Source: a virus (lineage: Duplodnaviria; Heunggongvirae; Uroviricota; Caudoviricetes). Taken from it: 64,000 nucleotides of DNA. The position numbers and the translations under genes were made by a program. Every line of letters starts with the position of its first letter. Position 1 is the stretch's first letter. A model generated the notes under the pieces. The model was given only the letters and a program-made list of their open reading frames with translations. It was not told the origin of the DNA and did not search any database. Of the stretch, positions 24,253-58,918 are shown piece after piece. The stretch lies in IMG/VR virus record IMGVR_UViG_647533160_000003, one strand, 5' to 3'.

Positions 24253-24295
24253 CTAATACTAGAAAACAATTTGTTTAAAAAACAAAGGAAAGCAC

Positions 24296-25636
24296 ATGAC
24301 CGAACTTTGCCATACAGGACGCGGGCTGTCCGAAGAGTTTGATGAAGATTTCCAGAACAGACTGACGGCATATTTTTGTCGTGATCACGAGTTTCTTACT
24401 CGTGCGGGAGATCTGGTTGTGCCTAGCCAATTTGCCAATGCGGCCAATGCCATATTGGTTAATATGGTTTCGGGCTATTACCGTATGTACAAGAGCGCGC
24501 CTTCTTCATCTGCGATTCTGGATATGCTTAAGCGCGCGAAACGCGATAAGACCATCCGTGAGGAACTCTTCCCGGATGTTGTTGCTGCGTTTAAGCGCAT
24601 CCTTGCAGAAAAATTGTCTGATACCTCGTACATGGTTGACCAGGTATCCACATTCGCAAAAAGTGTAGCGTTTGATGATGCTCTGATTAAAGCTGCTGAA
24701 CTGAAAGAGAAGGGCGACTTTCAGGGGGCGATGGCAATCATGGCCAAGGTTCAGCAGATAGGCTCGAACGAAGCGACCGGAATCTATGACTACTACACCT
24801 CCGCAAGTGAGCGATTGAAAGCGCGTGAATATGAGGCTTCAGAGGAGTATGTGCCAAACAGCATTACAACTGGACTCCCTCTGCTCGATAGGTTGCTGTA
24901 CCAAAAAGGCTGGGCGAAGCGTGAAATGGTGCTCTTCATGGGGTTCGCTAAATCCGGCAAATCGACCGCAATGGGTGAGTTTTCCATAAACGCAACGCTT
25001 GCTGGCTACAATGTTCTGTATCTCTCGCTGGAGGTTCACACCACCATTTTATCCGACCGTTTTGATGCAAGATTGTCGGAGACAGAAATGTCCAAGCTGG
25101 TGGAACGGCGCGATGAGGTTCATCGTAAGTTGGCAGAGTTGGGAGCCACGAAGGGGATTGGTAGTTTGTGGGTGGTTGAGCGTCCGTCAGGAAGTATGTC
25201 ACCGGCAGATCTGGACCGTATGCTTAACAGCATGAAAGCCAACGGCATGGTGCCTGACATGGTTGTTGTCGACTACGCAGATTTGATGCGTGCCAGTTAT
25301 GACCTTCGTGATGATCGCGCCAACATTCGTAGTATCTACACCGATTTACGTGCTCTTTATGACAAGCATAACGTTGCTGGGATCACGGCATCGCAGACAA
25401 ACCGTGAAGGTGGCGCGTCAGAAGTTGCCACAATGATGCACGCTGCCGACAACATCGAAAAAGTACGTATTGCTGACCTGGTAATAACGATCAACAAAAC
25501 CGAAGAAGAAGAAGCGAAAGGAGAGGCTCGTCTCTACTTTGCTGGTTCACGTAACCAGCAGGGAGGGATCAGCATTCGCGTTAAACAAAACCTCGAACAA
25601 ATGCGCTTCATTGAGCGAATCTTAGACGTTACCTAA
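24296..25636 (+). CDS. replicative DNA helicase, DnaB-like
   Basis: Walker A GFAKSGKST and Walker B-like MVVVDYADLM in a RecA-fold C-terminal half; conserved ACAAAGGAAAGCACATG initiation region; primase gene follows. Confidence 0.75.
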   Translation: MTELCHTGRGLSEEFDEDFQNRLTAYFCRDHEFLTRAGDLVVPSQFANAANAILVNMVSGYYRMYKSAPSSSAILDMLKRAKRDKTIREELFPDVVAAFKRILAEKLSDTSYMVDQVSTFAKSVAFDDALIKAAELKEKGDFQGAMAIMAKVQQIGSNEATGIYDYYTSASERLKAREYEASEEYVPNSITTGLPLLDRLLYQKGWAKREMVLFMGFAKSGKSTAMGEFSINATLAGYNVLYLSLEVHTTILSDRFDARLSETEMSKLVERRDEVHRKLAELGATKGIGSLWVVERPSGSMSPADLDRMLNSMKANGMVPDMVVVDYADLMRASYDLRDDRANIRSIYTDLRALYDKHNVAGITASQTNREGGASEVATMMHAADNIEKVRIADLVITINKTEEEEAKGEARLYFAGSRNQQGGISIRVKQNLEQMRFIERILDVT

Positions 25637-25717
25637 AAAATAAGCGTGGAGAACGCCTCCACGCTTGATTCATTGGTGAAACAACTTTTCTTTTGCCAAA
25701 CCACAAAAGAAAAACAC

Positions 25718-56933: not shown

Positions 56934-57578
56934 ATGGATCTAAAACGCACGCGCTGGGTTCGTCGTCTTGAAAACGGCTCCTACACTATCGAATCAAATT
57001 CCAACCTGAATAAGCAGAAGTTGCTTTGTGACATCTGCGGTATAGCGGCGAAGTGCCCGATCTACGAAACCAGAATTAAACTTGATAAGGCTGGTGTGAA
57101 CTTTCATTTAAACAGTTGCATCAGGTACGTTCCATTGCTCGCATTTCGTAAACCGATCATCGGATTGGATGCACCCTACTTCAACACACTCCGTTCAGGT
57201 GTGACGTGGCGAGATCGTTTATCACCAGACAAGCTGATTTGCCTTGTATCCGCAGACACAGGGAAAATCATCCGTTTTGGGAAAGTAGACAAGATTTACT
57301 CAGGCCCAGTAGACGAAATGTTGCGGAAACACAGCCGGTTTAATCATCTCTGTATGGGGGGTGAGAAAATCGAGAAGGTAGAAGAAGTGATCCGCAAATC
57401 CTACGGACACTTCCTGACCAAAGATAGCCTGCTCACCGCAATCTACATCAGACATGTAAAACGTGAGTTCGACCTCGAATACCACAGTGAAGAAGAGCTT
57501 AACCTTGTTGATCCACGTCCAAAAGCTGGCGTCATAAGCATAAACGCAGCGCGTAAAAAGCCCACTGACGCGCTGTAA
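56934..57578 (+). CDS. hypothetical protein (214 aa)
   Basis: ORF next to the origin; several Cys residues (CDICGIAAKC); no motif recognised. Confidence 0.4.
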   Translation: MDLKRTRWVRRLENGSYTIESNSNLNKQKLLCDICGIAAKCPIYETRIKLDKAGVNFHLNSCIRYVPLLAFRKPIIGLDAPYFNTLRSGVTWRDRLSPDKLICLVSADTGKIIRFGKVDKIYSGPVDEMLRKHSRFNHLCMGGEKIEKVEEVIRKSYGHFLTKDSLLTAIYIRHVKREFDLEYHSEEELNLVDPRPKAGVISINAARKKPTDAL

Positions 57579-57832
57579 CCCTCCAGATCGTATATTGGCG
57601 TAGATAGAATCTACGCCTCCTCAAAATAGCTCTCATAGCGTTCTACAGTGATTCTGTCTTATTTTTAGTCATACAGACAAGCAAACTTGCGCCACAATAA
57701 ATAGGTATATACTTACTTATAAATTTTGTATATTAAGGTGCTAGTTTCATTCCTAACATACCGTTATGCATAGTTGTTTACCTTCTCATTGCTCTTAGAA
57801 TTTGTATCAAAATAACCACAAAGGAAAAACAC

Positions 57833-58918
57833 ATGACTTTGCCATACGGCGTCATTTCTGACTGCCACTACCACAAATGGGATGCGTTCTCCACGACGAA
57901 CGCTGAGGGGCTTAACTCCAGACTTGAAATACAGTTGGAGGCAACGAAAGAAGCAGCCATCGCCATGAAGAAGGCCGGTTGTAAGTACATGTTGGTTGCC
58001 GGTGATACATTTCACGTCCGAGGAACTGTGTCCCCTTCTGTTTTGCATTACGTAACTGAAACGTACAAGTGGATTATCAACGAGCTTGATCTGACAGTAG
58101 TAATGCTGGCCGGTAATCACGATCTTGAAACCAACGATTCAGTATATAGCGCCAACGCAGCAGCATCGCTGAGTTCTATCGGCGTGGTAATCGTATGTGG
58201 CAAACGCCCACACTCAATAAAAATTGGTGATGTGACTGTCCACCTGATTAGCTGGCGTAACAATCATGCGGAGCTTATCAGCGATCTGAAAGCATTACGT
58301 AAGAGCGTAGAAGGTGATAATCATGACGTTGTTATCCATACATCCATTAACAAAGCCATACCAACAATGCCTGACGTCGGTATCGATGCGCAGGAGTTAA
58401 AGGATATCGGCTTTCGTCTCGTGCTTAGTGGGCATTACCACAACCACAAAGAGGTCATTCCTGGAGTTATCAGTGTCGGTGCACTGACTCACCAAAATTG
58501 GGGAGATGTTGGATCTCTGGCTGGCTACATGATCGTAAACCCGGACGGCAGTTTCAGTCACTACGAAACCAGTGCGCCTAAATTCATTAACCTGGAAGAT
58601 GATGTTGCTGATGACCAAATTCGCGGCAACTACGTGCGTTTCCGCGCCGTAATTGAGAACGATGAAGAAGGCATTAAGTACCAGAACATCCTCAAAACAA
58701 TGGGTGCAAAAGGTGTCGTGTGCAACTTCATCCGTAAGTCATCAATGATGGAAGGGACAGCCAGCACAACTGAAACCAGCAAAATCGATAGCCTGGGAGA
58801 GTCGGTATCTGCTTATTGCAAGATTGTCCACGATACTGACGGCGGATTTGATTTGAGCAAGTTGGATATTTTGTGTCAGGAAATCCTCACCGAAGCGGAG
58901 AGTTCGGAGGCTGTGTGA
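57833..58918 (+). CDS. sbcD: SbcD/Mre11-like nuclease (calcineurin-like phosphoesterase)
   Basis: Motifs in order: DCHYH, VAGDTFH, LAGNHD, GHYHNH; conserved AAAGGAAAAACACATG initiation region; SbcC-like gene follows. Confidence 0.75.
   Translation: MTLPYGVISDCHYHKWDAFSTTNAEGLNSRLEIQLEATKEAAIAMKKAGCKYMLVAGDTFHVRGTVSPSVLHYVTETYKWIINELDLTVVMLAGNHDLETNDSVYSANAAASLSSIGVVIVCGKRPHSIKIGDVTVHLISWRNNHAELISDLKALRKSVEGDNHDVVIHTSINKAIPTMPDVGIDAQELKDIGFRLVLSGHYHNHKEVIPGVISVGALTHQNWGDVGSLAGYMIVNPDGSFSHYETSAPKFINLEDDVADDQIRGNYVRFRAVIENDEEGIKYQNILKTMGAKGVVCNFIRKSSMMEGTASTTETSKIDSLGESVSAYCKIVHDTDGGFDLSKLDILCQEILTEAESSEAV

Follow-up and report, generated by a model that had tools for sequence, protein, structure and literature searches.

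Two conserved sequence signals in SSU5-type phage-plasmids: a candidate standardised translation-initiation region and a separate palindrome that may serve as a DNA operator

In the 64,000-nucleotide (nt) stretch of IMG/VR virus record IMGVR_UViG_647533160_000003 (Caudoviricetes), referred to below as the window, eight genes begin with a nearly identical string that runs from the ribosome-binding site to the start codon. This string, motif A, has the consensus AACCACAAAGGAAAAACAC-ATG and consists of AAGGA, a run of A, CAC and the ATG itself. A second element, motif B (AAACAAnTTGTTT), is a 13-bp palindrome with a 6+1+6 layout that was found at four sites in the window. Judged from the sequence analysis presented here, both motifs are real, conserved regulatory signals of familiar kinds. 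The interpretation that we favour, with modest confidence, is that motif A represents a standardised translation-initiation region and that motif B would be a separate, promoter-proximal DNA operator.

The window is 96-97% identical to the Escherichia phages CMS-2020a, PhiR41_1 and Cyrano, ~80% identical to Salmonella phage SSU5 and ~78% identical to Klebsiella phage pJN2-26. Because of this high identity it is assigned to the SSU5-type (SSU5/pHCM2-type) phage-plasmids of E. coli. Tail and lysis genes extend from position 1 to ~19,000, and from ~20,000 on parA is followed by replication, recombination and nucleotide-metabolism genes, an integrase/repressor region and a plasmid replication gene. 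Gene names were transferred from annotated relatives; loci in other genomes carry L numbers. The helicase is 68% identical in the K. oxytoca plasmid pCAV1015-111 (L084) and 37% identical in the Acinetobacter relatives. A helicase-alignment scan of species-representative genomes returned 11 loci only, and the scan of IMG/VR returned close relatives only. Phage-plasmids of the SSU5/pHCM2/pMT1 type are common and account for 776 to 831 plasmid records from Klebsiella, E. coli, Enterobacter, Salmonella and Yersinia. In the literature searched on the subject, no description of gene control in SSU5-type elements was found.

Results

Motif A marks the starts of eight genes in the window

The copies of motif A in the window are listed below with their scores against a position matrix that spans -20 to -1 and was built from the eight main sites.

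24276-24298, + strand: motif A of the DnaB-like helicase gene (taaaaaacaaaggaaagcacATG); score 21.4, leave-one-out 15.8
25698-25720, + strand: motif A of the primase gene (aaaccacaaaagaaaaacacATG, without the GG core), in frame with the primase; score 27.0
30069-30091, + strand: weaker ninth copy (agaaacaacaaaagaaacacATG), opening a 19-codon open reading frame (ORF) that overlaps the ligase start; score 11.8
42266-42288, + strand: motif A of the CobS/MoxR-like AAA ATPase gene; score 23.1
43682-43704, + strand: motif A of the DNA polymerase III (PolIII) alpha gene, overlapping the end of a small ORF (43524-43727); score 21.0
48803-48825, + strand: motif A of the gp32-like SSB gene (atcacaacaaggagaaacacATG); score 23.0
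52272-52294, + strand: motif A of a gene for a 66-amino-acid membrane protein, making up nearly the whole predicted 5' leader; score 20.7
53879-53901, + strand: motif A of a 91-amino-acid ORF; score 26.7
57813-57835, + strand: motif A of the SbcD-like nuclease gene, the exact consensus (0 mismatches); score 26.6

The ninth copy sits within the 3' end of the preceding gene. With up to three mismatches, the 18-mer ACAAAGGAAAAACACATG matches the window five times, always on the + strand, where dinucleotide shuffles lead one to expect 0.11 matches. The string AAACACATG occurs seven times on the + strand, every time at an ORF start, and not once on the - strand (0.5 expected per strand). The eight sites (starts at 24296, 25718, 42286, 43702, 48823, 52292, 53899 and 57833) score 20.7-27.0 with the matrix and 12.7-24.8 in leave-one-out runs, compared with 7.7 on the + strand and 6.0 on the - strand for the highest-scoring unrelated start-like triplet. 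Positions -3 to -1 read CAC at 8/52 + strand gene starts, a hand-picked set, against a background frequency of 0.009 (binomial P = 2e-8). The original prediction had named nine genes with near-identical strings. Eight of these hold, but the gene at 53418 does not belong to the set (matrix score -11.6); the gene at 40082 also lies outside it (-2.1). Its further statement that the string is more conserved than a Shine-Dalgarno sequence alone requires is borne out by the clean separation in matrix score and by the CAC, which is fixed, whereas the GG core is sometimes absent.

Motif A is conserved in enterobacterial relatives and confined to non-structural genes

The matrix trained on the window found 9-11 sites in SSU5, 6 in pJN2-26 and 14 in K. 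oxytoca pCAV1015-111, all of them at coding-strand ORF starts. Some K. oxytoca sites belong to genes that have no motif A in E. coli, for example the recA-like gene at 35132, 12719 and 46784. In the complete Cyrano genome 12-13 sites were detected, which are on the coding strand and all within 32-86 kb; the Cyrano structural genes contain none and use CAAGGA with variable spacers instead. No motif A was found in the Acinetobacter relatives with the window-trained matrix. In SSU5 and pJN2-26, copies at the same gene keep motif A while the sequence further upstream has diverged. The helicase-gene copy is kept in SSU5, pJN2-26, K. oxytoca and L086-L091, and the CobS/MoxR-like copy is retained in SSU5, pJN2-26 and K. 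oxytoca despite differing flanks. From copy to copy, the likeness ends ~20-24 nt upstream of the ATG, and the copies share no promoter or flank.

For 46 E. coli K-12 genes, with those of the ribosomal-protein and elongation-factor operons among them, the matrix score did not exceed 1.6, and CAC was never present at -3 to -1. Together with the phage's own structural genes, these genes rule out that motif A is a generic strong ribosome site of the host. Neither a DnaA box nor extended pairing with 16S rRNA was retained as an explanation, as the likeness is partial, was seen by eye only, and lies in a part that is missing in the K. oxytoca lineage. The exact 15-mer AAGGAAAAACACATG has many single matches in IMG/VR, in seemingly unrelated contigs, and more than one match only in contigs of phage-plasmid size. 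On the distribution seen here, motif A is specific to non-structural genes of the enterobacterial SSU5-type family.

Bias in base composition had been named as something that might account for the whole pattern. The upstream regions are indeed A-rich, and AAGGA is the general Shine-Dalgarno sequence of the phage, structural genes included. Nevertheless, a by-product of A-rich composition around start codons is refuted by the counts: shuffles that preserve dinucleotides do not reproduce them (0.11 against 5 and 0.5 against 7), CAC at -3 to -1 is enriched even when these upstream regions themselves supply the background composition (P = 2e-8 in the window, P = 6e-25 in K. oxytoca), and neither the opposite strand nor the structural or host genes contain motif A.

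Motif A is placed on the mRNA

The CAC always abuts the ATG. The spacer from GGA to ATG measures 5-8 nt in SSU5 and always 6 nt in K. oxytoca; in the E. coli lineage a length of 7 nt prevails. As the primase copy (AAAAGAAAAACAC) has no GG, the conserved core is GA(A)AAACAC-AUG. In K. oxytoca, motif A fills gaps of 17-18 nt between genes of the same operon or overlaps the end of the upstream gene. Since it occurs within operons and over upstream coding sequence, it is not tied to a transcript 5' end or to a promoter. Where promoters are predicted (52234-52262 and 57774-57801), motif A constitutes nearly the whole leader of 23-25 nt. The promoter-like sequence upstream of 52292 reads TTGAAA-17-TATTAT and is preceded by a terminator-like hairpin (52204-52224), and that of the SbcD-like gene, read by eye, is TTGTTT-16-TAGAAT. 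The predicted unpaired probability of positions -15 to +3 is 0.68 for motif A genes and 0.51 for 42 other genes (P = 0.001).

Several copies open short upstream ORFs of 6-23 codons (window 25718 and 30089; L002 10838 and 14591; L003 12227; L084 10043; L089 ~9977). The ATG equivalent to 25718 opens an upstream ORF of 23 codons in SSU5, 22 in pJN2-26 and 6 in K. oxytoca; that of the SSU5 ligase has 12 codons and ends in TAATG. At the primase in SSU5 and pJN2-26, the ligase in SSU5 and the helicase in L089, the upstream ORF stops on the main start codon (ATGA or TAATG overlaps), but at the K. oxytoca primase and the window ligase it does not. The overlaps suggest translational coupling. In the window, the upstream ORF of the primase is fused in frame, and the public primase starts (GTG in Cyrano) are therefore probably too far downstream. 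Other public starts in Cyrano also look wrong (CYRAN_58, L001 33634; CYRAN_105, L097 25805): one is at ATT and one is inside a motif B palindrome, and in both cases an ATG with a Shine-Dalgarno sequence comes after the palindrome.

That motif A acts at the level of translation, as had been proposed, agrees with its start-codon-locked position on the coding strand, which it also holds within operons and before short upstream ORFs in relatives. The fixed CAC, the intra-operon copies, the upstream ORFs and the open predicted fold place motif A on the mRNA as an unstructured translation-initiation module, and it is from these features that we infer an effect on translation.

Motif B is a separate palindrome next to predicted promoters

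The motif B sites of the window are given below; as palindromes they are listed without strand. Promoters and transcription starts named here are predictions.

20235-20251: motif B GAAAACAAGTTGTTTCA upstream of parA; identical in SSU5 and pJN2-26, present in K. oxytoca, L089 and L090
24262-24278: motif B upstream of the helicase gene; 3 nt after the predicted -10 hexamer AATACT (24255-24260) of TTGATC-16-AATACT
40048-40064: motif B (GTAAATAATTTGTTTTC) upstream of the cobT-like gene; 12 nt after the predicted -10 hexamer TACATT (40032-40037) of TTAGTT-17-TACATT
53387-53403: motif B upstream of the DUF7238 gene (ATG 53418); predicted promoter TTGGAC-17-TATCTT at 53353-53381
25677-25693: degenerate palindrome-like site (GTGAAACAACTTTTCTT, 2 core mismatches) between the post-helicase hairpin and motif A of the primase; may be due to chance

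The longer form GAAAACAATTTGTTT is exact at 24262 and 53387 and has two mismatches at 40048, and the core AAACAANTTGTTT with at most one mismatch occurs at four window sites, compared with 0.35 expected. The palindromes that had been described ~20 nt upstream of the genes at 24296, 40082 and 53418 are thus present, and a fourth copy, at parA (20235), had been missed. The distance from palindrome to ATG is 16-20 nt for helicase, cobT and 53418, and 35 nt for parA. At the cobT position, SSU5 and pJN2-26 have perfect copies. The arrangement of promoter and palindrome at the helicase is kept in five lineages (SSU5, pJN2-26, K. oxytoca, L089 and L090), and the predicted promoter at 53353-53381 begins within the preceding terminator hairpin. 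Relatives share the arms AAACAA/TTGTTT but differ in the flanks, and any of the four bases can occupy the centre, as in a two-fold symmetric site. The palindrome follows 3-15 nt behind conserved hexamers that resemble -35 and -10 elements; these hexamers were picked out by eye, and there are several weak ones among those at -10.

The complete Cyrano genome contains 18 copies in one orientation, many of them before small genes at 93-98 kb that lack motif A. In view of these copies and of the position beside predicted -10 hexamers, motif B is independent of the ribosome-site motif A, and its symmetry and placement make a DNA operator for a symmetric dimer the most likely role. Such an operator would begin directly behind the predicted -10 hexamer and reach into the start of the transcript, and at parA it may instead overlap the -35 hexamer. 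The regulon would include parA, helicase, cobT and many small genes. An RNA hairpin was considered for motif B and rejected: its energy is only -1.6 to -2.3 kcal/mol, and variants in a single arm both keep and break the pairing.

Two further observations concern the surroundings of motif B. A third half-site-like sequence (AAACAA/TAACAA) lies between the palindrome and the Shine-Dalgarno sequence at the helicase (24277-24284) and cobT (40066-40072). In the predicted RNA fold of lowest energy, this half-site-like sequence is paired with the right palindrome arm, which could be chance in A-rich sequence. At the genome-end junction of Cyrano (108350-108379 joined to 1-140; L097, L098), a palindrome of the TAAG..CTTA type, two motif B palindromes 25 bp apart, a terminator-like hairpin and the small terminase gene were found, a layout that suggests a late operon controlled by termination/antitermination.

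A candidate motif B binder encoded after parA

20953-21312, + strand: 119-amino-acid gene after parA; candidate ribbon-helix-helix protein, ParG/omega-like; possible binder of motif B

ParA is annotated in relatives, and the 119-amino-acid product of the gene that follows may correspond to the ribbon-helix-helix protein of Type Ib (ParG/omega-type) partition systems, which binds the centromere and also acts as a regulator. The alignment of the protein (..KSRTMSLEDEYFELLEMM..FTRSDVIRAAIFHLAE) has a strand-helix-helix pattern. Its structural model, a poor one with a predicted local distance difference test (pLDDT) score of 63, has a disordered basic N-terminal tail and helices at 48-60 and 70-84. 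No match was obtained in Pfam, in the PDB profile search or in the fold search. The protein is therefore only a candidate for the ribbon-helix-helix fold, which we infer from pattern and model, and binding of motif B by it is plausible. An annotation in Cyrano as a RelE-like (RelE/ParE-like) RNase was not followed, as sequence pattern and predicted secondary structure favour ribbon-helix-helix. Upstream of parA a single motif B palindrome and no repeat array was seen.

Dispersed palindromic operators are known from global regulators of plasmids, namely the 13-bp KorB site TTTAGCSGCTAAA and the KorA sites of RK2, omega of pSM19035 and the dispersed centromere repeats of the phage-plasmid N15. 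Like these, motif B lies upstream of the partition operon and at many dispersed promoters, and a further parallel is the gene behind that of a small ParA, whose small product is probably of the ribbon-helix-helix type. Unlike in the RK2, omega and N15 systems, to whose sites the sequence of motif B is unrelated, most copies are beside -10-like hexamers and close to ribosome sites.

Candidate factors that might read motif A

A Pfam scan of 10 + 31 window proteins and 35 + 10 Cyrano proteins, from which large and relative-named proteins were left out, found neither RegA (Translat_reg) nor RegB. Among these ~85 proteins, the only recognisable RNA-binding or nuclease family was that of FljA. Cyrano CYRAN_114 (Cyrano 100783-101301; L097 30783-31301, minus strand) matches Pfam Flag1_repress over its whole length (E = 1e-80), with a weak Hfq-like match in the C-terminal part. 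By tblastn, FljA-like proteins were found in 831 plasmid records (341 from Klebsiella and 62 from Yersinia, including Y. pestis; also Escherichia, Enterobacter and Salmonella). The protein looks widespread in the family, as its records are of the same size class and genera as the helicase matches; the overlap was judged by these two properties and not record by record. Klebsiella and Y. pestis are commonly non-motile. The E. coli fliC leader has no convincing similarity to motif A or motif B. A trans-acting RNA complementary to motif A was considered and dropped: the best duplexes reach -16.3 kcal/mol in the window and -17.3 kcal/mol in Cyrano, compared with -17.3 kcal/mol in the shuffled window, and only trivial antisense was higher.

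A 70-nt unit with both motifs splits a polymerase gene in Klebsiella plasmids

In K. oxytoca (L084 29389-29458) and 28 other Klebsiella plasmids (29 in total; L100 is K. pneumoniae), a 70-nt insert splits the gene for PolIII alpha. The insert contains a TAA stop codon, two motif B palindromes, motif A and an ATG. The resulting ORFs of 790 and 386 amino acids align to residues 1-777 and 788-1171 of the window protein. In the window gene, homology to relatives breaks at the same place (45887-46099). In one plasmid, with a cassette region that is ~81% identical, divergence has affected the sequence from one palindrome to the other but has spared the two palindromes and motif A. By this pattern of conservation the 70-nt unit is portable and kept by selection.

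Other signals and neighbouring features

A third motif is the palindrome ATAAGT-N4-ACTTAT (TAAG..CTTA), which was seen in the window at 52244-52259, 23480-23500, 54193-54213, 28748-28768 and 39551-39564 and also in L084 and L085. In TTGAAA/TTGATG...TATCAT promoters it occupies the 17-nt spacer, and several copies lie between a helix-turn-helix repressor gene and a divergent cro-like gene. The TAAG..CTTA palindrome is probably the operator of the main immunity repressor. In the Acinetobacter relatives, TAAGCGCTTA stands beside TATAAT in its place. The ORFs at 54214 and 48274 lack a Shine-Dalgarno sequence, and their ATG directly adjoins a promoter/operator-like motif (ATAAGTTAGTATCTACCTATC-ATG); these two ORFs may be translated from leaderless mRNAs. 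Late genes (4598-4615, 5015-5033) have Shine-Dalgarno contexts of the CAAGGATG type (TTACAAGGATGTGAG-ATG), a context that appears to match the CsrA consensus from in vitro selection (SELEX), RUACARGGAUGU.

A low-GC island with minus-strand genes (window 33600-38000, GC 0.26-0.35) is either missing from Cyrano or differs there, and probably represents an accessory or defence module acquired by insertion. Pfam matches to Sel1 repeats and AbiGi among the unassigned ORFs of the window probably come from this island. The stretch 33016-33455 is 93% identical to the tRNA-Thr/tRNA-Asn region of phage P7, and the Cyrano annotation there lists tRNA-Asn, Thr and Ser. In Acinetobacter pYFY27.1 (L085 21548-22213), a sigma-70-family factor directly follows the CobS/MoxR-like gene; enterobacterial members have only a 67-amino-acid ORF at this position.

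Discussion

In this study, we describe a start-codon motif and a palindrome in SSU5-type phage-plasmids. If motif A is a standardised translation-initiation region, as we favour, it would have three parts: a short Shine-Dalgarno sequence (AAGGA, or in some copies just GAG or AGA), a spacer of A and C only with a variable number of A, and an invariant CAC before the AUG. A spacer of this composition would neither fold on itself nor offer a competing AUG, GUG or UUG start, so that the ribosome site would stay open. The module would work in three settings, namely as the near-whole leader of 20-35 nt after a promoter, for re-initiation in operon gaps of 17-18 nt, and ahead of short upstream ORFs. 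Near-identity across unrelated genes would then result from selection on a specific string together with copying of the unit. Recognition of motif A by a dedicated factor would be possible but is not needed.

Several points weigh against this interpretation. All promoters with the exception of 52234-52262 were assigned by eye, and in several of them the -10 hexamer is weak, with G or A as its last base. Because some copies lack GG, the conserved core of motif A is, on sequence comparison, GA(A)AAACAC-AUG and not the Shine-Dalgarno sequence itself. Openness and the lack of competing starts would explain a spacer of A and C only, but neither the fixed order AAACAC nor the avoidance of U, which points towards sequence-specific reading; spacers in E. 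coli tolerate U well. For motif B, the fixed orientation relative to the gene and the place in or next to the leader would also be compatible with a role at the RNA level.

Sequence-specific reading is the basis of an alternative in which the genes with motif A form a post-transcriptional regulon and have this motif as their common operator. On many early mRNAs, a repressor from the phage-plasmid or the host would bind GA(A)AAACAC-AUG and block initiation, either silencing the lytic replisome in the plasmid state or shutting off early genes late in infection. We regard this as rather unlikely. It would account for the base order at the AUG, which is fixed and avoids U beyond what ribosomes need, and for the restriction of motif A to one gene class. 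There is also a precedent: RegA of phage T4 recognises about 30 early mRNAs at their AUG, where its binding sites carry a poly(A) tract and lack structure (PMC3014915). Motif A resembles such sites in that it abuts the ATG at 8 window and 12-13 Cyrano genes with leaders predicted to be more open than others, and, as for RegA and RegB sites, the A-rich stretch on many early, non-structural mRNAs is longer than the ribosome needs (PMC3014915). The SELEX consensus of RegA is aaAAUUGUUAUGUAA, and its sites are A+U-rich with a 5' poly(A) tract (PMC3014915). Motif A has the poly(A) tract but is A+C-rich with almost no U, carries a fixed CAC and mostly has GGAA rather than GGAG. Moreover, no RegA homologue was present among the ~85 proteins scanned and no complementary trans RNA in the window or Cyrano. 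An autogenous operator of the SSB or RegA type, as the original prediction had proposed, is not supported, since the motif occurs on eight unrelated genes and is not special to SSB, and the proteins scanned include no RegA or RegB homologue.

The operator of T4 gene 32 consists of a pseudoknot and an unstructured stretch and acts on its own mRNA only. In the window, the leader of the gp32-like SSB gene (48750-48822, ~75 nt) contains a nested hairpin, GCC..GCGCATAGCGC..GGC, upstream of motif A and is conserved in SSU5 and pJN2-26. The gene 32 system is similar in this conserved leader with a hairpin and a motif A copy, but motif A precedes 8-14 different genes, and K. oxytoca lacks the hairpin. 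Because the motif is not special to the SSB gene, autogenous control of the gp32 type does not explain it.

The candidate for a dedicated repressor is the FljA-family protein of Cyrano. FljA proteins are said to prevent translation of fliC mRNA and are reported to act on the mRNA leader (PMC2652032). FljA-like proteins are found in the 831 plasmid records and in none from Acinetobacter, whose relatives also lack motif A. It is tempting to speculate that this protein reads motif A, and perhaps motif B, as the RNA operator of an element-wide regulon that keeps the lytic replisome untranslated in the plasmid state, but we give this proposal little credence. Nothing ties the FljA-like protein to motif A, its gene lies outside the window, and the fliC leader has neither motif, so that a link to either is a guess.

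Even less probable, and in our view very remote, is that motif A marks early mRNAs for an endoribonuclease like RegB with S1, or that its ACA triplets are cut by a toxin such as MazF. In T4, RegB and ribosomal protein S1 cut GG*AGRAYARAA, an extended ribosome-site motif of early genes, and strong RegB sites have GGA followed by an A-rich stretch with one pyrimidine, which resembles GGA(A/G)AAACAC (PMC3014915). Toxin-antitoxin genes (HicA/HicB, KacT) are annotated in Cyrano. However, GGAG is present only in the SSB copy (48823), the others having GGAA, GGTA or no GG; no RegB, RelE or HicA family was detected among the window proteins scanned, and the RelE/ParE-like gene of Cyrano looks like ribbon-helix-helix.

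A further explanation is that motifs A and B form a portable regulatory cassette spread by recombination, their similarity reflecting recent copying and not selection at each site. The B-B-A unit that splits PolIII alpha in 29 Klebsiella plasmids is in favour of this, as are the short upstream ORFs, which fit a unit with its own ATG landing a few codons before a gene, and the spacer lengths preferred by each lineage (6 nt in K. oxytoca, mostly 7 nt in E. coli). Yet the likeness between copies ends ~20-24 nt upstream of the ATG, with no promoter or flank in common, and when the window is compared with Cyrano, SSU5, pJN2-26 or K. oxytoca, the limits of the homologous blocks fall upstream of promoters or at the ends of genes. 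At ~70-80% genome identity, a given gene keeps its copy while the flanks diverge, which requires selection at each site. We consider the explanation distinctly unlikely as a whole. Exchange of modules as cassettes, the second mechanism in the original prediction, is supported as far as the portable 70-nt unit is concerned, but not by the homology blocks, which do not break at motif A. T4-type phages have mobile promoter/stem-loop cassettes called PeSL (PMC2839356, PMC4122927). As in PeSL, short regulatory units are repeated before many early genes, and one B-B-A unit has split a Klebsiella gene; unlike PeSL, motif A comes without promoter or terminator, and recombination junctions between relatives lie elsewhere.

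Conclusions

Read as a standardised translation-initiation region and a separate promoter-proximal operator, motifs A and B, together with the TAAG..CTTA palindrome, provide three sequence handles on SSU5-type phage-plasmids: a standard ribosome site at non-structural genes, a 13-bp palindrome with ~18 copies per genome at sites that include parA, the helicase gene and the start of the packaging operon, and the TAAG..CTTA palindrome, which occurs in the immunity region and in promoter spacers. Public annotations would be corrected at several gene starts. If the FljA-family protein should read motif A, one RNA-binding repressor would act on a dozen standardised ribosome sites, also in hosts that commonly lack flagella; any dedicated factor that reads motif A would establish a second phage-wide translational regulon after that of T4 RegA. 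The three handles make the switch between plasmid and lytic states directly testable.

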